From Nanobdellota archaeon (GTDB lineage Archaea > Nanobdellota > Nanobdellia > Pacearchaeales > GW2011-AR1), in the NCBI GenBank assembly GCA_038045185.1, contig JBBSYO010000022.1:164-64163 (forward strand): a stretch of DNA of 64,000 bases, given 5' to 3'. Below are positions 11,479 through 61,299 of this stretch, piece after piece; position 1 is the stretch's first letter, and each line of letters opens with the position of its first letter. The position numbers were made by a program, and so were the translations under genes. The notes beneath the pieces were generated by a model. It worked only from the letters and a program-made list of their open reading frames with translations. It had not been told where the DNA came from and ran no database searches.

Positions 11479-11550
11479 TTGCAAAGAAGAAGAGATGTTG
11501 TGCCACTGCCGTCGTCTGGGTTCAGCGTGTATTTTCGAGGGGATGCGGGC

Positions 11551-11892
11551 TTAATTGAAACCTGTTGGACCGATTGTTCTCAAGATGTGCTTTATCTCTT
11601 CGATGACTTTTTGTTGTTCCTTCTTATCTGACATTCTCACAAATCGTATTAGTAAGTCAGTTAATGCTTCTTGATTAAAAACTCGGATCTTATGAGAATC
11701 TGTAATAAAATAAAACCTAAAACCCTCATATTTCAGTTCTTTTACTACAATTCCTCCCACATGGCCAAGAGACTTTCCTTTAGATGGAGAGTGTTCCAAA
11801 GACCGCAGATGTTCTAGTATTTCAATAGAATTTCCTTTAAATCGCTTATAAATTTCCTCTTTTAAGGAAGGTACAATTTCTACTTTGGCCAT
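11551..11892 (-). CDS. hypothetical small protein; possible RelE/ParE-HigB-like toxin of an inserted two-gene module
   Basis: 113 aa; AT-rich; 13-nt overlap with the upstream small ORF; beta-rich C-terminal segment GFRFYFITDSHKIRVFN loosely resembles RelE/HigB-type toxins. Confidence 0.35.
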   Translation of the reverse strand: MAKVEIVPSLKEEIYKRFKGNSIEILEHLRSLEHSPSKGKSLGHVGGIVVKELKYEGFRFYFITDSHKIRVFNQEALTDLLIRFVRMSDKKEQQKVIEEIKHILRTIGPTGFN

Positions 11893-12080
11893 TTTTTCTT
11901 AGCTTCAGCGATTGCTTCTTCAATAGGTATTGCATCTCCTTCAAATAAGAACTGGCGTAGCTGCTCTTTAACAGCCATTGAATATAGGTGATTGATTATG
12001 TCATCATAAGAATCTCCTTTAGTTCCGAATGATTGGAGCTTCTTTTTTGTACTCTCATTGACTTGTATTGTAGTTGCCAT
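11880..12080 (-). CDS. putative antitoxin-like small protein (ribbon-helix-helix/VapB-DUF217-like)
   Basis: 66 aa; TIQVNESTKKKLQSFGTKGDSYDDIINHL resembles archaeal putative RHH antitoxins; overlaps the downstream ORF. Confidence 0.4.
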   Translation of the reverse strand: MATTIQVNESTKKKLQSFGTKGDSYDDIINHLYSMAVKEQLRQFLFEGDAIPIEEAIAEAKKKWPK

Positions 12081-12109
12081 AGTTTCTATAGTAGCTATAG
12101 TTGCTATAT

Positions 12110-12382
12110 TTATAAAGATTTCGGTGATGCTTTTCTTGCTTTTCTTCTTAAAATCAAAAGTCTCAGTTTTTTATTCCATCTTTTAACATCAAAATAGTTT
12201 GAGAAGTGCATATGCTCGTCTCTCAGCATTTTTCTATCGTCACAACCTCTTACTCCGTCTCTATAATCAAGCCAATCGTTCCAATATGGTTGAGGCTCTA
12301 GTCCTTCTTTAATAAGGATCTCTTTTTTATTTTTAAATCTTGGAGTTTTTCTTCCACTATGTCTTCTTGTTTTGCTATTCAC
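12110..12382 (-). CDS. hypothetical basic protein
   Basis: 90 aa; AT-rich; Arg/Lys-rich; third minus-strand ORF of the insertion between rpl15 and secY. Confidence 0.3.
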   Translation of the reverse strand: MNSKTRRHSGRKTPRFKNKKEILIKEGLEPQPYWNDWLDYRDGVRGCDDRKMLRDEHMHFSNYFDVKRWNKKLRLLILRRKARKASPKSL

Positions 12383-12518
12383 TTATTTAGAAGCCAATTA
12401 AAATATATAATTTTAAGCTGTAACTCTGTAATAGAAATTTTTTACAAGTCAGTCAAAAATGACCAGTTGGTCTTATGCTCCCGCCGAGCCCAACCCTGCA
12501 AAAACCCATTATCAAGAT

Positions 12519-12529
12519 ACGTTTAAAAA
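12519..12529 (+). promoter_or_regulatory. TATA-like box (GTTTAAAAAGT) upstream of secY
   Basis: AT box about 25 nt upstream of the secY ATG at 12551, giving archaeal leaderless spacing. Confidence 0.4.
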
Positions 12530-12550
12530 GTCTTTTTTTGTAAAGCACTG

Positions 12551-13987: not shown

Positions 13988-14389
13988 ATGCCTCTTACCA
14001 CTCTTGTAAACGCGTATCCGCTCGCTAGTGTCGTCACGATTTCAGCACTTGTTTCATTCTTTATTTCATTAGTAAACTATTTTGTACTGGACAAGGAGCG
14101 TATGCGCGAGCTTAAGGAAAAGCAGAAATCGCTTCAAAGCGAGATAAAAAACCAGCCTGATTCCCAGAAAAAGATGGAGCTAACCAACCAGATGCTCAAG
14201 CACAGCATGGAAACCATGAAGCACTCCATGAAGCCTGCGCTAATAACGATGATTCCTCTTTTGATTATATTCTGGTTTATCAAGGGAATGTTTGAGACGA
14301 CTTCGCTTGCAGGAAGCTGGATATGGTACTACATTGGGAGTGCTTTGGCATTTAGTCTGGTCTTCAGAAAACTTTTTAAACTGCCTTAA
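13988..14389 (+). CDS. DUF106/EMC3-Oxa1-like membrane insertase family protein
   Basis: 133 aa; TM-coiled coil-TM architecture resembles archaeal DUF106 (YidC/EMC3-like) proteins, which are usually found near secY. Confidence 0.55.
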   Translation: MPLTTLVNAYPLASVVTISALVSFFISLVNYFVLDKERMRELKEKQKSLQSEIKNQPDSQKKMELTNQMLKHSMETMKHSMKPALITMIPLLIIFWFIKGMFETTSLAGSWIWYYIGSALAFSLVFRKLFKLP

Positions 14390-14402
14390 GTGCTTTGCGT
14401 TC

Positions 14403-14801
14403 ATGGAACAGGAATTATTTGCGCGCGCGCAAATCGCTTATCAGCAAGCCCAAGCGCATGAGGAACGGCTCGGATTTATCAATCAGCAGATTCAGGAAAT
14501 GGAAGAATTTAATTCTGGCTTGAAACAACTCGCGCATAACAAGCAAGGAGAGATTTTAGCATCTTTAGGAAAGGGCGTTTTTGTAAAGACTAAAAGAATT
14601 GAGCAGGATTTTTTTGTTGATGTTGGATCACAGGTGTTCGTCAAAAGAAATCTTTCTGACATACAAATGACACTTGGCGAGCAAATTAATCGTCTTACCG
14701 AATTGCGAGAAGAAATAAAAGAAGAACTGGCTGACTTAAAGCAGGATCTGAGCGAGATGATGGAGTCAGTTGAACCTGTTCAGAAGCACAAAACTATTTA
14801 A
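14403..14801 (+). CDS. prefoldin subunit (alpha-like)
   Basis: 132 aa from an internal ATG; coiled coils flank the beta-hairpin region ASLGKGVFVKTKRIEQDFFVDVGSQVFVKRNL, which matches the prefoldin signature. Confidence 0.55.
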   Translation: MEQELFARAQIAYQQAQAHEERLGFINQQIQEMEEFNSGLKQLAHNKQGEILASLGKGVFVKTKRIEQDFFVDVGSQVFVKRNLSDIQMTLGEQINRLTELREEIKEELADLKQDLSEMMESVEPVQKHKTI

Positions 14802-16894: not shown

Positions 16895-18106
16895 ATGTTT
16901 AACAGAGAGTTTATTCGTGGCGGCCTCATTCTCGTTTTTTGTTTTGGCGTAGCCAACCTCATCAATTTTGCGTTTCACTTAAGCATGGCTAGATTTTTGA
17001 GCGTTGCGGATTATGGTCTGCTCGCAACACTTTTAGCCATCATCTATCTGCTTTCAATTTTATCAGAGTCTGTTCAGACCATTGTCTCAAAAAACGCTAG
17101 TAATAAAGAAGTTGATGTTCTTGGGGTAATGAATCGGTCTATGCGAAAAATGATGCGCCCCGCATTATTGCTATTCGCAACTTATCTAATTGTGTCTATA
17201 CCCTTGTCCGTCTTTCTCGATATCCCTTACTTCCTTCTTTCTCTAAACGGATTAATGATATTTGGTTCACTTTATATGCCAATTAACCGCGGATTGCTTC
17301 AGGGAAAAAAGAGGTTTCTGCCTCTCGGAGGCAACATGGTTATAGAGTCTGTCGGCAAGTTGGCTCTTTCTCTTGTTCTCGTTATAATTGGGTTTGCAGT
17401 ATATGGTGCAATTATCGGGGGTCTGCTAGGGGCCGGACTCGCTTATGCCGTGTCTTTTATCAACCTCAAGCCCCTATTCAATCGCAGCAAGAAGTTGGTT
17501 AAGAAAGAAATAGAATATAATTACGATAAAAAATCTTTCCTTACGATATTTTCTATAATGACTTTCTTTGCTATTGACATCGTTGTGGCGCGAATAGTTT
17601 TTGAGCCAAGCGTTGTTGGGACATATGCAATTGCGTCTACTATTGCCAAGACTATATTCTTTGCAACGATGCCGGTGGGCAAGGCAATGTTTTCATTTAC
17701 TGCTGAAAAATCCAGCGCGGAAAAATCTGAGAAAGTCTTTCTCAATGCACTAACATTTATTGGTTTTGGGATAATTGTTGCCTTAACCATGTTTTATTTC
17801 TTCCCCGGCTTGTGGGTGTTTATCTTTTCTGGTAAGCATTTACCGCTGGCGGCAGGTTCGCTCTTTATCCTTGGCATAGCTTATAGCCTAATTAGTCTTA
17901 CGAATCTGGTTCTTCTTTATAAAATTTCTATCGGCAATGTGCGCCACATATGGCTTATCGTCCTAATGCCAGTTATAGAAGTTGTGCTTCTATTCATTTT
18001 CTCTAAAAACATAATGCAATTTTCATTTGCCCTTGTAACGAGTTCAGCGTTGTTCTTGTGGGTTTCCCTTAGCAGCGATTATAGTTATAGTAGAAGACAT
18101 AAATAA
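16895..18106 (+). CDS. polytopic membrane protein, probable oligosaccharide flippase (Wzx/MATE-like)
   Basis: 403 aa, about 10-12 TM helices; located between aglH and the glycosyltransferase genes; family assignment is tentative. Confidence 0.45.
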   Translation: MFNREFIRGGLILVFCFGVANLINFAFHLSMARFLSVADYGLLATLLAIIYLLSILSESVQTIVSKNASNKEVDVLGVMNRSMRKMMRPALLLFATYLIVSIPLSVFLDIPYFLLSLNGLMIFGSLYMPINRGLLQGKKRFLPLGGNMVIESVGKLALSLVLVIIGFAVYGAIIGGLLGAGLAYAVSFINLKPLFNRSKKLVKKEIEYNYDKKSFLTIFSIMTFFAIDIVVARIVFEPSVVGTYAIASTIAKTIFFATMPVGKAMFSFTAEKSSAEKSEKVFLNALTFIGFGIIVALTMFYFFPGLWVFIFSGKHLPLAAGSLFILGIAYSLISLTNLVLLYKISIGNVRHIWLIVLMPVIEVVLLFIFSKNIMQFSFALVTSSALFLWVSLSSDYSYSRRHK

Positions 18107-18715
18107 AGAAAATCGTTGAAATTTCCTACCGAACCGGAGCAAGCTCCGCGGTATAAAAAACTCCTTGAATTCATCTTGGCAGTTTTTTAGCCAGAGAACA
18201 AAAGACTAAAATCTACTCCGATTTAGATAAAGGATTTTGTTCTCTGTATTCGGAAATGTCAAGATGCCTGATGACTTGCATCTTGAGCACACAAGGTTTG
18301 CAACTTTAAGCAAATCTTGCTGTTTCTGATTCACGATTTTCTAATTAGAATCGTCAAGAACAAAGTTCTTGAGCGCCTCGAAAATCTTACGAGATTTTCG
18401 CAGTTTTACTCCACAGCAAGCTGCGGGGTATTCAACCCAAAAATTCTAATCAAAAAGTCCTTGAGTTTTACCACATGTCAAAAACCACTGGTTTTTGAGC
18501 ACTGCCAAGAATGCAACGCCAGGCATCCTTGAGGGTTGGATGTGTCAAAAACTTCTTTTTTGAGACCTCGCAAATATAGACATTCCAGTTGATTGTGCTG
18601 TATCGGTGTGGGAATGTATAGACAGAGATTCTTGAGCAATAAGTAGCTTAATCAGGGGGAATCTCTGTATCTTGGATTCGTAAAGTTTTAAAAAGCCCCA
18701 TCTTCTCGAGTTGAT
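18107..18715. repeat. 609-nt noncoding region packed with TCAAGA...TCTTGA-type hairpin palindromes (hairpin array A)
   Basis: At least 8 perfect stems of 8-11 bp, e.g. 18193-18245, 18259-18286, 18354-18372, 18379-18400; shares conserved blocks with 40651-41308. Confidence 0.6.
18686..18694 (+). promoter_or_regulatory. TATA box TTTTAAAAA for the GT2-alg14-alg13-methyltransferase operon
   Basis: 22-30 nt upstream of the ATG at 18716 (leaderless spacing); followed by AGCCCC, as seen at 43971. Confidence 0.45.
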
Positions 18716-40650: not shown

Positions 40651-41308
40651 ATGATAGATTCATTAGCAGTAGTTTTGTCAAGAATCAAAAACACGATGCG
40701 CCACCACACCTTAAAACGTCAGGAATCATGGATTCCTGAGCGCCTCGAAATTCAAAGAATTTCTCAGCCTCAAGAACTACGGTTCTTGATGGCCATCAAA
40801 GATTAAAAATCTTTGAGGGGTGTGGTTTGAAAAGGCGCTCGTGTCATCAAGGACTTGTGTCCTTGAATGCCATCAAGAATGTAAATTTCCAACATTCTTG
40901 AGGTTTGGATGCTCAAGAAGCGACCACACCATAAATGGTGTGGTTTTAGTCAAGCTTCTTGACATCAAAAAGTCCTTGGGTTTTTTTGTGTTGGACTCAT
41001 CAAGAACTTGGTTCTTGACATTATAAATTCTTGATGATTCAATTGCAAGAGAAATATTTTATGGATTTCTCTGCACAGAGAATTACCATTGTCAGCAATT
41101 CTCTTGTGTCAGAATTCTTGGTGTCTTGAACATGTCGGAAATCTTCGATTTCTGAGTACTCTCAGGAATTTCATTCCTGAAGCTGTCAGAATTCGACGAG
41201 TGGAATTCTGAAGTTTAAAAGCGTTTAAATTGGTTCAATAAAGAGAGCCATAAGAAAAATTTGGTCAAGCCAAGATAGATTTTTAAACAAGAAAGTTTTT
41301 GATTAATT
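40651..41308. repeat. 658-nt noncoding region with nested TCAAGA...TCTTGA hairpins (hairpin array C), homologous to array A
   Basis: Perfect stems at 40721-40737, 40770-40789 and approximately 40923-40946, among others; shares TGAGCGCCTCGAAA (40737-40750) and ATCAAAAAGTCCTTG (40964-40978) with array A. Confidence 0.6.
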
Positions 41309-42055
41309 ATGTTAAGGCAAATTCAGAAGAGTGTATATCTATTCTTAGCAAAATACAAGATTTTCTATCCCCTGCTCTTTAGAATATTAATAAAGAAAGG
41401 CTACTTAGAAGAAGATTTTGACAAAATAATAAAGAGATATTCAAATAAAAATAAAAATTTATTTTTCATTCAGATAGGGGCTAATGACGGAATGAAATTT
41501 GATCCAACTTACTTATACGCAAAAAAATATAGGTGGAAAGGCATTTTAGTAGAGCCCGTTGATTATGTATTTGGAAAACTCAAAAATAATTACAGAGGAT
41601 TTAATGGCTTAATTTTTGAAAATGTAGCAATAGGAGAAAAAAATGGCTTCAAAAAATTCTATATGTTAAAAAAGAGCGAGGGGGAAGATATTCCGTTATG
41701 GTATGATGAAATAGGCTCATTTTTTAAAGAAAATGTTATTAAACATAGAGACAGAATTAAGGATTTGGATAAAAGATTGATAACTAAAAAGATAAAAGTT
41801 CTAACTCTTAAATCCTTGCTTGGAAGGCATAAAGTTAACAGAATAGACTTCCTGCAGATTGATACGGAAGGATATGATTATCATATATTGAAACAGATTC
41901 CATTTGATAAAATAAAGCCGTCTATGATAGTTTTTGAAGATAGACATCTACCAAAAAATCAAAAAGAATATTGCCAAAGATTGTTAATTGATAACGGTTA
42001 TACCATTGTTCGCGGTTTAGATTGTTTTGCTTATCTCCGAAGTCGACAACCCTGA
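41309..42055 (+). CDS. FkbM-family methyltransferase
   Basis: 248 aa; very AT-rich; FIQIGANDG motif typical of Methyltransf_21/FkbM. Confidence 0.72.
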   Translation: MLRQIQKSVYLFLAKYKIFYPLLFRILIKKGYLEEDFDKIIKRYSNKNKNLFFIQIGANDGMKFDPTYLYAKKYRWKGILVEPVDYVFGKLKNNYRGFNGLIFENVAIGEKNGFKKFYMLKKSEGEDIPLWYDEIGSFFKENVIKHRDRIKDLDKRLITKKIKVLTLKSLLGRHKVNRIDFLQIDTEGYDYHILKQIPFDKIKPSMIVFEDRHLPKNQKEYCQRLLIDNGYTIVRGLDCFAYLRSRQP

Positions 42056-50683: not shown

Positions 50684-50784
50684 TCTTAGAAGCCTTAGAA
50701 TCCAAATCACGCAGATAATCTCTAAGCGCTTCCTGCCAAGGCCTTAACGGAAAAGTGGTCGGCGCAAGCACTTCACCCTTCGAC

Positions 50785-51042
50785 CTATAGCAAAGGACGC
50801 TCTTGTTTCCCCACGGTGTGCGCCTTTGCCATCAGTGAACGACAGACTATCGGGTAAAAACTTATGTCGTTCACTATATTTACCACGCCCTGCGCTGATG
50901 CGGTAGGTTCGATATTTGAAGAGCTTCTGAGAAAATCCTTCATTTTAGATACAATTTCAAATGCTGATGCTCCGCCGCTGTTTGCAATATGCACCACCCC
51001 TTTCTTCTCCGAAACAATTGGCTTGGCAAGTGGATGCCAAAG
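50785..51042 (-). pseudogene. C-terminal fragment of an RmlD-like sugar-nucleotide reductase (gene remnant)
   Basis: An 85-codon frame LWHPLAKPIVSEKKGVVHIANSGGASAFEIVSKMKDFL... resembles the RmlD C-terminal segment; no N-terminal Rossmann part or ATG. Confidence 0.4.
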
Positions 51043-51109
51043 TTAACACTCGTTAAAATCCGCAGACTTTAGTCTGCAGTTGTTTTTGCTGCAGATTTTC
51101 TAAGTGGCT

Positions 51110-51225
51110 ACAAAACCACGAACAAGCCCCGCATCTCAAGAATGCCTAATCTACATTCTTGATGACCATCAAGAAATAAAATTTCTTGAGGCTTTAGTGC
51201 GGGGTTAAAACTAGCAGGTTTTGTG
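51110..51225. repeat. nested multi-helix element (hairpin array D core); possible structured RNA
   Basis: Outer stem 51110-51117/51217-51224; inner stem 51127-51133/51198-51204; internal hairpins 51137-51163 and 51169-51189, both of the TCAAGAA(T) type. Confidence 0.5.
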
Positions 51226-51277
51226 ACTTTCCTTCTCAATTAAACCTCCTGCTCCTATGATTACAACTCTTGATAAA

Positions 51278-59609: not shown

Positions 59610-59680
59610 TGCGCGGTACGGGAATCGAACCCGTAACCGCGGATTGGAAATCCGCTATTTTGCCATTAAACTAACCGCGC
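59610..59680 (-). tRNA. tRNA-Gly (anticodon UCC)
   Basis: 71 nt; 7-bp acceptor GCGCGGU/ACCGCGC, D stem GUUU/AAAU, anticodon stem GCGGA/UCCGC with loop UUUCCAA, T loop UUCGAUU; no encoded CCA. Confidence 0.75.
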
Positions 59681-59720
59681 TTGTTATTCTTATCAAGAAA
59701 GATGTTTTAAACCTTTTCAA

Positions 59721-59795
59721 CGCCCTCGGCAGGATTTGAACCTGCAACCTTTGGGTTAGGATCCCACTGCGCTATCCGGGTTGCGCCACGAGGGC
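59721..59795 (-). tRNA. tRNA-Arg (anticodon CCU)
   Basis: 75 nt; acceptor GCCCUCG/CGAGGGC, D stem GCGC/GCGC, anticodon loop AUCCUAA, T arm GCAGG-UUCAAAU-CCUGC, discriminator G. Confidence 0.72.
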
Positions 59796-59796
59796 A

Positions 59797-59881
59797 TGTG
59801 GGCGCTAGGATTCGAACCTAGGAAGGCACTAAGCACAGTAGCTCTTGAGGCTACCCCGTTTGACCGCTCCGGCACGCCCAC
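59797..59881 (-). tRNA. tRNA-Leu (anticodon CAA), class II with a long variable arm
   Basis: 85 nt; acceptor GUGGGCG/CGCCCAC, anticodon stem GUAGC/GCUAC with loop CUCAAGA, 16-nt variable arm, T arm CUAGG-UUCGAAU-CCUAG. Confidence 0.72.
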
Positions 59882-59907
59882 ATCTCAATGAGAGATAGAA
59901 AGGCGTT

Positions 59908-61095: not shown

Positions 61096-61299
61096 GCTTG
61101 CTCGACAGAACATGGAAAGCTTTATAAGTACTATTGTAGGACAAAATATGAAGACGGCCATAGTGATCAGGAAACACCTGTTCCCTTTCCGAACACAGCA
61201 GTTAAGCTGATCACGTCGGTCGCGGTAGTCTCCGAACAGAGGCGAAACACCGATGCTGTCTTCGCCATATTCCTTTTTATAATCCAGTTTCTTCTTAAT

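Follow-up and report, generated by a model that had tools for sequence, protein, structure and literature searches.

A 64,000-nucleotide stretch of a Nanobdellota archaeon genome (contig JBBSYO010000022.1; hereafter the window) contains, at positions 18107–18715, a 609-nt intergenic region that is crowded with inverted repeats and that we call gap A. We find that gap A is probably a cluster of non-autonomous mobile palindromic interspersed DNA repeats, similar to REP/BIME elements and Rickettsia palindromic elements (RPEs), that entered the lineage after its split from syntenic relatives. The family to which these repeats belong is dispersed, modular and nested, is inserted in operon junctions and in one open reading frame (ORF), is absent from close syntenic relatives and disrupts genome assemblies. 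Two further arrays in the window are considered with it, gap B (40.65–41.3 kb) and gap C (50684–51277, with repeats in its 3′ part). Throughout, L-numbers denote comparison loci or contigs, among which L091 and L095 are host contig sequence extending past the ends of the window, and P-numbers such as P0002 denote listed protein homologues.

Gap A is a lineage-specific insertion

Gap A is located 3′ of the ribosomal protein–SecY cluster, at the point at which a long glycosylation island begins. Its 5′ neighbour is a Polysacc_synt flippase gene (16895–18106, + strand) and its 3′ neighbour is a GT2–Alg14–Alg13–methyltransferase operon (18716 onward, + strand). Through homologues of the GT2 protein we reached syntenic contigs with the gene order GT4, flippase, GT2, Alg14, Alg13. 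From the flippase stop codon to the GT2 ATG, the window has 609 nt, compared with 40, 42 and 52 nt in L099, L101 and L102/L103, respectively. The window, L099, L101 and L102 have in common a TTTTAAAAA box at the same distance (around 22–30 nt) before the GT2 ATG, and the relatives carry this box without the array. We infer that the box is likely to be the native archaeal TATA box and B-recognition element of the GT2–Alg14–Alg13 operon. Because the relatives combine a spacer of 40–52 nt with the retained box, about 560 nt of gap A represent a lineage-specific insertion, and entry into the lineage after the split from these relatives is the best explanation for the difference.

An earlier note on this DNA had proposed, among other readings, that a regulator which binds palindromes uses the region as an array of operators. 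If a dimeric DNA-binding protein controlled the glycosylation operons from such sites, the recurrent TCAAGA/TCTTGA half-sites would be accounted for, but the spacing of these half-sites (the hairpin loops) ranges from 3 to 32 nt, complementarity runs past the conserved hexamer into stem interiors that co-vary, the sites are missing in relatives with the same operon and promoter box, and similar sites occur in unrelated contexts. These observations contradict the proposal, and we consider an operator role extremely improbable. A hairpin insertion present only in this lineage is neither a conserved operator array nor a GT2 leader RNA; the practical outcome for the window is that the glycosylation operon has no conserved regulator in gap A. 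As it lies 3′ of the flippase stop codon and 5′ of the GT2 box, the array is most likely to be transcribed only as the 3′ tail of the flippase mRNA.

Hairpins in gap A far exceed chance expectation

All of the inverted repeats that the earlier note had named were recovered, including the 11-bp repeat AGAGAACAAAA/TTTTGTTCTCT (18193–18203 and 18235–18245), the 9-bp repeat TCAAGATGC/GCATCTTGA (18259–18267 and 18278–18286), TCAAGAAC-aaa-GTTCTTGA (18354–18372) and CGAAAATCT-tacg-AGATTTTCG (18379–18400). The two blocks that it described as shared with gap B are exact matches (TGAGCGCCTCGAAA at 18370–18383 and 40737–40750; ATCAAAAAGTCCTTG at 18449–18463 and 40964–40978), and the motif YCTTGAG indeed occurs five times in gap A, always on the + strand and never on the − strand (29 occurrences in the whole 64 kb; about 0.28 expected in 609 nt).

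We counted perfect stems with loops of 3–12 nt and derived the expectation from 500 dinucleotide shuffles. Gap A has five such hairpins if stems of 7 bp or more are counted (0.54 expected) and four if the minimum is 8 bp (0.17 expected), and neither count was equalled in any of the 500 shuffles. The same statistic gives 12 hairpins in gap B (0.26 expected) and 3 in the 3′ part of gap C (0.06 expected). Of the 30 tight hairpins of this kind in the whole window, 19 fall in gaps A–C, which make up about 2.4% of its length, and 13 begin with TCA. When folded, both strands of gap A beat their shuffles, with z = −7.8 for the + strand and −6.0 for the − strand. The pile-up of hairpins is real and far above chance.

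The earlier note had also found no convincing ORF, CRISPR array or tRNA in the region. Our results bear this out: gap A holds no plausible ORF, its units differ in sequence and, unlike CRISPR repeats, have no regular spacers, and a scan of the gaps for tRNAs and tmRNAs gave none. Terminator and promoter scans of gap A returned counts at chance level. At gathering thresholds, an Rfam scan of the whole window identified only a 5S rRNA and three tRNAs, and scans of gaps A and B at E values up to 10 gave only chance-level matches.

A modular family built from one kind of unit

When the gaps are split into hairpins and linkers, the basic unit is a palindrome of 19–30 nt with a TCA…TGA foot and a perfect stem of 7–10 bp. 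The commonest foot is TCAAGA…TCTTGA, with the variants TCAGGA, TCAAAG, TCAAGG, TCAGAA and TCAAAA; the inner stems vary from copy to copy with complementarity kept, and the loops are 3–10 nt long, at times up to 32 nt. Units are mostly paired, joined by a 6-nt linker of the TGnCCA type (TGGCCA, ATGCCA, CTGCCA, GCACTG). A second class of hairpin, with an AGAGAA…TTCTCT foot, is found at 18193–18245, in gap B (AGAGAAAT/ATTTCTCT and AGAGAATT/AATTCTCT) and in an insert between the S9 and VTT genes in L095.

These units also compose a larger core of about 95–125 nt with two helices, of the form ATCAAAAA…TTTGGATGC-TCAnGA…TCnTGA-CAT. Its first half consists of ATC with a run of five A, the variable 5′ strand of helix P1 and the variable P2 hairpin (such as ACCACACC/GGTGTGGT or CCTCGGC/GCCGAGG); its second half consists of the 3′ strand of P1 with a run of four to six T, an invariant GGATGC, the hairpin P3 on a TCAnGA…TCnTGA foot, and CAT. 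As P1, too, is a TCA(A5)…(T5)G(G)A hairpin, the whole family is made from one kind of unit. Additional doublets are nested in the loop of P2, or lie between the 3′ strand of P1 and TTTGGATGC. A covariance model made from seven hand-trimmed cores finds copies in the window and in L013, L021, L025, L027, L089, L090, L091 and L095. Among paralogues the core helices co-vary, with 95.8% of cells paired and compensatory changes in 13 of 25 pairs (equalled in 0 of 500 shuffles); as the alignment of the cores was itself fitted to the model, the counts are biased towards the model structure. The features of the three arrays are as follows.

18107–18685, + strand: inserted, lineage-specific block of hairpin repeats between the flippase stop codon and the likely GT2 promoter box
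18135–18154, no strand assigned: CGGAG-caag-CTCCG hairpin with a GGTAT tail, copy 1 of the 'GCAG-cttg-CTGC' module, a direct repeat
18193–18245, no strand assigned: 11-bp hairpin AGAGAACAAAA/TTTTGTTCTCT of the second class
18259–18286, no strand assigned: TCA-foot hairpin TCAAGATGC-10 nt-GCATCTTGA
18354–18400, + strand: two-hairpin module H1-TGAGCGCC-H2, comprising TCAAGAAC-aaa-GTTCTTGA, the linker GCGCCT and CGAAAATCT-tacg-AGATTTTCG
18411–18431, no strand assigned: CCACAGC-aag-CTGCGGGG hairpin with a TAT tail, copy 2 of the 'GCAG-cttg-CTGC' module
18449–18566, + strand: degenerate core of gap A, like the intact cores in L095, L091 and L087, in the order ATCAAAAAGTCCTTGAG (5′ strand of P1), ACCACA (remnant of P2), nested doublet, TTGGATG, P3 (TCAAAAA-cttct-TTTTTGA)
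18476–18535, + strand: nested hairpin doublet TG-TCAAAAACC-act-GGTTTTTGA-GCACTG-CCAAGAATGC-8 nt-GCATCCTTGA-GGG
18577–18668, no strand assigned: two further hairpins, TAGACATTCC/GGAATGTATA and ACAGAGATTC/GAATCTCTGT
18686–18694, + strand: TTTTAAAAA box, outside the repeats
40684–40968, + strand: core 1 of gap B, with homologous copies in L013, L025, L089 and L090; P1 is CACGA(T)GCGCC/GGCGCTCGTG, P2 is ACCACACC/GGTGTGGT and holds four nested hairpins in its loop, a further two hairpins stand before TTTGGATGC, and P3 is TCAAGAAGC…GCTTCTTGA, followed by CAT
40964–41022, + strand: core 2 of gap B, a short form with ATCAAAAAGTCC…GGACT, then TCAAGAAC-ttg-GTTCTTGA, then CAT
41023–41211, no strand assigned: other hairpins of gap B, of both classes (AGAGAAAT, AGAGAATT, TCAGGAAT and TCAGAATTC)
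51090–51250, − strand: degenerate core of gap C in minus orientation, with the outer stem CCCCGCA/TGCGGGG (51127–51133 and 51198–51204) enclosing a doublet at 51136–51189 (TCAAGAATG-9 nt-CATTCTTGA, TGACCA, TCAAGAAAT-aaa-ATTTCTTGA)

The covariance model matches core 1 of gap B with 46.8 bits at 40872–40968, with another match at 40684–40790, and the core of gap A weakly, at 18449–18517. Several of the smaller modules recur elsewhere. The H1-TGAGCGCC-H2 module is found, with co-varying stems, at 40719–40765 of the window and in L071, L084, L088, L089 and L090, and the 'GCAG-cttg-CTGC' module occurs in the opposite orientation at L031 14207–14226 and twice in L054. The core of gap C is the reverse-complement counterpart of L091 4832–5003.

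Copies are dispersed across genomes and one lies within a gene

Among 80 Pacearchaeota loci, about 10 have related modules, at sites that are not syntenic, as listed here.

L013: after rpoK
L025: upstream of SecY
L071: downstream of SecY
L027: beside the proteasome alpha gene
L021: between S8 and L6, where the spacer is 189 nt, whereas 52 of the 61 loci measured have at most 16 nt
L084: between L30 and L15, with a 14-nt direct repeat at the flanks
L031, L054 and the metagenome contigs L087–L090: further dispersed copies

The family was not found in the nearest sampled relatives (L007–L012) or in the syntenic contigs L097–L103. A metagenome scan with a 22-nt module pattern matched only four contigs, which served for comparison but are too few for a census. 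Within the 84 kb sampled from the host genome, six sites with arrays of up to 13 hairpins account for about 1.8 kb (around 2%).

One copy lies in a coding sequence. A MacB/FtsX permease gene beyond the 3′ end of the window (L095 11597–12919, 440 aa) contains an exact, in-frame insert of 108 nt that corresponds to one core (L095 12266–12378) and adds 36 residues to the protein. The other 119 listed MacB homologues are all shorter (321–422 aa, with 116 of them at 401–410 aa), and in the five that we aligned (P0002, P0003, P0004, P0008 and P0012) the insert is missing as a single clean gap of 36 aa. In the syntenic contigs L097/L098 (91% protein identity) the empty site reads GTGCAAATAAAAGACCAAGAT, whereas the filled site reads GTGCAAATC, the 108 nt and then AAAAAATCAAGAT, with an imperfect direct repeat of about 8 nt at the flanks. 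We considered and rejected a bulge–helix–bulge intron for this insert, because by eye the A-rich beginning of exon 2 finds no complementary sequence where the intron would begin. The insert between S9 and VTT in L095, of about 150 nt, is likewise absent from L097.

Insertion has also occurred within the repeats themselves. In L089 and L090, cores that closely resemble those of gap B carry an additional doublet, about 61 nt long (TGTCAAAAACC-act-GGTTTTTGA-GCACTn-TCAAGAATGC-loop-GCATTCTTGA-AG). Its insertion point is between ACCACA and CC(A/T)TAAA in L089, at two places, and follows CACTGCA in L090, without target duplication. A matching doublet follows ACCACA in gap A (18476–18535), and the homologous hairpins of gap B lack it. 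Of the insertions that we observed, that of the doublet at ACCACA^CC is the cleanest, being placed within a hairpin, site-specific and free of target duplication.

Contigs L013, L071, L089 and L032 end inside arrays, and four independent assemblies of the host strain (L003–L006) break at window position 18355 or 18473, a pattern explained by multi-copy repeats, which break short-read assemblies.

The dispersal bears on the suggestion in the earlier note that these are MITE-like recombination elements that delimit glycosylation cassettes. Of the three readings that it offered, this one comes nearest to the evidence, as the family is interspersed and insertion-polymorphic at unrelated loci in several Pacearchaeota genomes. 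The terminal inverted repeats that define MITEs are absent, as the two ends of the core (ATCAAAAA… and …TGACAT) do not form an inverted pair, and there is no target duplication of fixed length, the flanking repeats being 0, about 8, 12–13 and 14 nt in four insertions. The delimiting role finds no support, given the copies at the S8|L6 (L021) and L30|L15 (L084) junctions, by SecY and rpoK, and inside the MacB gene.

A related explanation is that the repeats are recombination sites, either attC-like or for a tyrosine recombinase, that bound exchangeable glycosylation cassettes. All three arrays of the window lie within a variable island of glycosylation genes, the gene beside gap B has a low G+C content (0.298 at 41–42 kb) and a tyrosine recombinase gene is located about 10 kb beyond the window. 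Nevertheless, ribosomal protein operons, the surroundings of SecY and rpoK and the permease ORF contain copies as well, the arrays are runs of hairpins with no cassettes in between, and the recombinase is also kept in L097, which has no elements, as expected for a housekeeping Xer protein. The attC sites of integrons are imperfect palindromes of 57–141 nt with an R″-L″/L′-R′ layout, a GTTRRRY core and extrahelical bases, and their cassettes lie next to intI. The perfect 19–30-nt palindromes described here have neither that layout nor that core. We therefore regard recombination sites as very unlikely.

A probable DNA-level origin and the points that weigh against it

Of 82 scored hairpins, 36 have perfect Watson–Crick stems. 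Mismatches on the sense strand are divided equally between G·T and A·C (11 each), and thus show no wobble asymmetry, as scored by a crude method that over-extends stems past the foot. The loops of otherwise identical copies can be inverted with respect to each other (atg in the window and cat in L089; aaa in gap C and ttt in L091), and intrastrand template switching at palindromes yields exactly such flips. Perfect stems, wobble symmetry and flipped loops favour a DNA-level phenomenon.

Several observations weigh against mobile DNA repeats as the complete account. All orientable cores and H1-TGAGCGC-H2 modules (about 18 of 18) are in the sense orientation relative to the adjacent gene, and in L090 an inverted pair of copies lies between divergent genes, each copy co-oriented with its neighbour. 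Because this co-orientation holds at divergent genes, replication-strand bias does not explain it, which points to some transcription-linked constraint on insertion or survival; strict sense orientation is not predicted for purely selfish DNA and hints at a constraint or function at the RNA level. The core architecture is kept across genomes with SecY proteins that are only 64–71% identical, which could reflect function. Flanking direct repeats range from none at the doublet, through about 8 nt in MacB, to 12–14 nt at the S9–VTT site and in L084, so that no single known transposition chemistry fits and more than one process may act. Pfam scans of 30 neighbouring proteins identified no mobilising enzyme, and neither a tblastn search with an approximate IS608 TnpA query nor a pattern search for the HUH…Y motif gave a match in 1.6 Mb of genome fragments. 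The genome-wide copy number is an extrapolation from the sampled sequence, and the two doublet insertions in L089 could result from gene conversion rather than from independent insertion.

The orientation of the copies would suit a reading in which the repeats are functional structured RNAs that are selected on the transcript, either as cis-acting mRNA elements (3′-end stabilisers, processing sites or leaders) or as small RNA genes, with copies recruited wherever such control is useful. Consistent with this, the core helices co-vary, the + strand of gap A has the slightly better folding z score and the core architecture is conserved in distant Pacearchaeota. However, the region is missing in syntenic relatives that have the same operon and promoter box, copy number and position differ among related genomes, one copy lies in frame within an ORF, contigs break in the arrays, G·U wobble shows no strand asymmetry, perfect palindromes fold equally on both strands, and no Rfam family is matched even at the relaxed threshold; furthermore, gap A is upstream of the GT2 promoter box and is thus not a GT2 leader. 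We judge this explanation unlikely. For the family of structured small RNAs envisaged in the earlier note, the strict sense orientation is compatible, and the remaining evidence disfavours it as the primary explanation. Readings of the core as RNase P RNA, signal recognition particle RNA or an H/ACA RNA (on the basis of AAAGUCC- and ACA-like motifs) were rejected, as the element is multi-copy and non-syntenic and gives no Rfam signal. T-runs are present in both orientations of the element, and an outward promoter (TTTTAA in P3) is only a guess.

Replication errors in place could, alternatively, have built the arrays without a dedicated transposase, through tandem duplication of a hairpin-plus-linker unit of about 26 nt and template switching, by way of fork stalling and microhomology-mediated copying. 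The hairpin starts in gap B are spaced by about 26 and about 51 nt, the perfect stems and flipped loops match what template switching predicts, the direct repeats at the flanks are of unequal length (about 8 nt and 12–14 nt), one hairpin arm of the S9–VTT insert overlaps the duplicated target and no transposase was found in the sampled sequence. Set against this are near-identical complex modules at unlinked loci and in different genomes (the 108-nt MacB core and L091 4832–5003; the gap A doublet and its counterparts in L089 and L090) and the MacB insert, which is a clean and complete unit. Such copies require long-range copying beyond local slippage, which template switching could in principle supply. 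We consider replication errors by themselves quite unlikely.

If the repeats are mobile DNA, as we favour, a trans-acting enzyme that recognises the foot of the hairpin in single-stranded nucleic acid would produce the copies, and local tandem duplication and intrastrand template switching would then add units, keep the stems perfect and flip the loops. The doublet insertion at ACCACA^CC resembles IS200/IS605-type HUH chemistry. A viral source was rejected: three IMG/VR scans with 0, 109 and 49 pattern matches revealed no viral link, as all of the matches lacked both the closing hairpins and the ATCAAAA motif and are attributed to chance.

Relation to known repeat families

The closest analogues are the bacterial REP/BIME elements (REPINs) and the RPEs. 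REP/BIME elements are palindromic stem-loops of 20–40 nt with a conserved foot that are mostly extragenic, form mosaic clusters and frequent doublets, sometimes occur within ORFs and prefer sites between unidirectional and convergent genes (PMC3733652; PMC3116915). The archaeal units are likewise 19–30-nt stem-loops with a conserved foot, doublets and mosaic arrays, at sites between unidirectional or convergent genes and in one ORF. They differ in the foot itself (TCA…TGA, with the GTAG or CGTC tag absent), in stem interiors that are far more diverse, in the nesting of units in the loops of a larger two-helix core, and in their DPANN host, in which no RAYT-like gene was found among the neighbours or, using the IS608 TnpA query, in the 1.6 Mb sampled. 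The known classes of RAYT, a Y1 HUH enzyme, are reported from bacteria only, and IS200-type TnpA is the sole Y1 subclass known in Archaea (PMC6006769).

RPEs are palindromic repeats of about 100–150 nt that occur in frame in protein-coding genes as well as between genes, in a small, reduced genome (PMC3733652). The 108-nt palindromic core in the MacB permease, which is in frame, adds 36 residues and is missing from homologues, is similar; the archaeal family differs in having a single in-ORF copy so far and in being composed of much smaller perfect hairpin units, and sequence homology to RPEs would not be expected between the two domains. A third likeness is to the miniature elements derived from IS200/IS605 (PATEs), which also lack terminal inverted repeats and have hairpins near both ends; the doublet at ACCACA^CC, with no target duplication and a site in a hairpin that would be single-stranded, agrees with this, whereas the other insertions have direct repeats of 8–14 nt, no conserved 4–5-nt target lies to the left of the core and no TnpA/TnpB gene was found nearby.

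The BOX elements of Streptococcus pneumoniae are modular, with a variable number of internal units between conserved end modules, are intergenic with strong predicted secondary structure, and have no known mobilising enzyme. The archaeal family is likewise modular, structured and intergenic, but differs from BOX in sequence, in the domain of its host and in its much smaller palindromic unit. Unlike integron attC sites, the perfect units stand in cassette-free runs, including those in ribosomal protein operons and in an ORF.

It is possible, although we put this forward only tentatively, that the repeats represent the first REPIN- or RPE-like system in Archaea, that is, a DPANN family copied and pasted under hairpin guidance by an unrecognised enzyme and inserted through, or selected on, the transcript. 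As RAYTs are unknown in Archaea, an enzyme that serves such a family would be an unrecognised one. The family might use the single-stranded non-template strand of transcribed genes, or it might act as an RNA element that rides inside operons and even ORFs. A literature search with incomplete full-text coverage gave no report of such repeats from Pacearchaeota or any other DPANN archaeon.

Host and neighbouring genes

Exact protein matches put the window on a 162,861-nt contig (ERZ1292617) recovered from Hainich groundwater, in the 0.1-µm filter fraction. Relatives of the SecY protein of the window are found only in metagenome-assembled genomes (MAGs) of Pacearchaeota, 'Woesearchaeota' and Nanoarchaeota, with the best GTDB representative being 92% identical. 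The host is therefore one of the DPANN archaea, and the G+C content of the host genome, as estimated from the window, is about 42%. The gene directly 3′ of gap B (41309–42055) encodes an FkbM-type methyltransferase; G+C is 0.298 over 41001–42000, compared with about 0.42 elsewhere, which suggests recent acquisition. The first 340 nt or so of gap C are unlike the hairpin repeats and include a 70-aa ORF (MVHIANSGGASAFEIV…; 50785–50997, − strand), and this stretch may be a gene remnant.

Within the ribosomal protein–SecY cluster, the L15–SecY junction (11479–12550) is 1,073 nt long, compared with about 36 nt in the syntenic relatives L099 and L102, and looks like another lineage-specific insertion into a conserved operon. 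It contains two small ORFs on the reverse strand, possibly a toxin–antitoxin-like pair; one encodes a 113-aa protein that matches no Pfam family and the other a DUF7557 protein of 66 aa (called in L001/L002). After SecY, an EMC3/TMCO1 (YidC-like) ORF (13988–14389) encodes 133 aa, compared with 175–177 aa in L099 and L102, and overlaps a TTG-started ORF (14292–14801) that contains the prefoldin gene; it may have been truncated or frameshifted. Further along the window, without hairpin repeats, are three adjacent tRNA genes (Gly-TCC, Arg-CCT and Leu-CAA; 59610–59882, − strand) and a stand-alone 5S rRNA gene (61150–61264, + strand).

Beyond the window, around 1.5–4.3 kb upstream of its position 1, L091 5683–8499 encodes a 938-aa MmeI-like type IIL restriction-modification protein, which is replaced by a 160-aa ORF in the otherwise collinear contig L092 (GCA_964361575.1), indicating that defence genes vary at the strain level. 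Around 0.9–1.3 kb past the 3′ end of the window, a 117-aa ORF with no Pfam match (L095 12921–13274) separates tandem MacB/FtsX permease genes that overlap directly in L097/L098.

Expanded S8–L6 spacers were also seen at other loci. They include L072 5779–5932, with a 50-nt direct repeat, and L073 3290–3689 and L086 5449–5687, with small ORFs. These spacers and those of L037, L085 and L079 were excluded from the family, as they contain small ORFs, a direct repeat or AT-rich hairpins of another kind. The S8–L6 junction seems to be a recurrent insertion point in Pacearchaeota. The reverse complement of L087 1–500 contains a sequence resembling a tRNA and, after it, an incomplete second copy with the same CCACCTTCCGCT end, both directly upstream of a hairpin-repeat core at the end of the contig; the pair may reflect a tRNA-linked insertion or duplication.

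Implications

DPANN genomes are about 1 Mb in size and gene-dense and are thought to be poor in repetitive DNA. Here palindromic repeats make up around 2% of the sampled sequence, split ribosomal protein operons, lengthen a transporter by 36 residues and break metagenome assemblies, and the family thus bears both on the evolution of DPANN genomes and on the assembly and annotation of MAGs. Should a mobilising activity be found, it would either extend the REP/RAYT type of association between host and element to Archaea or reveal a different mechanism of hairpin recognition.

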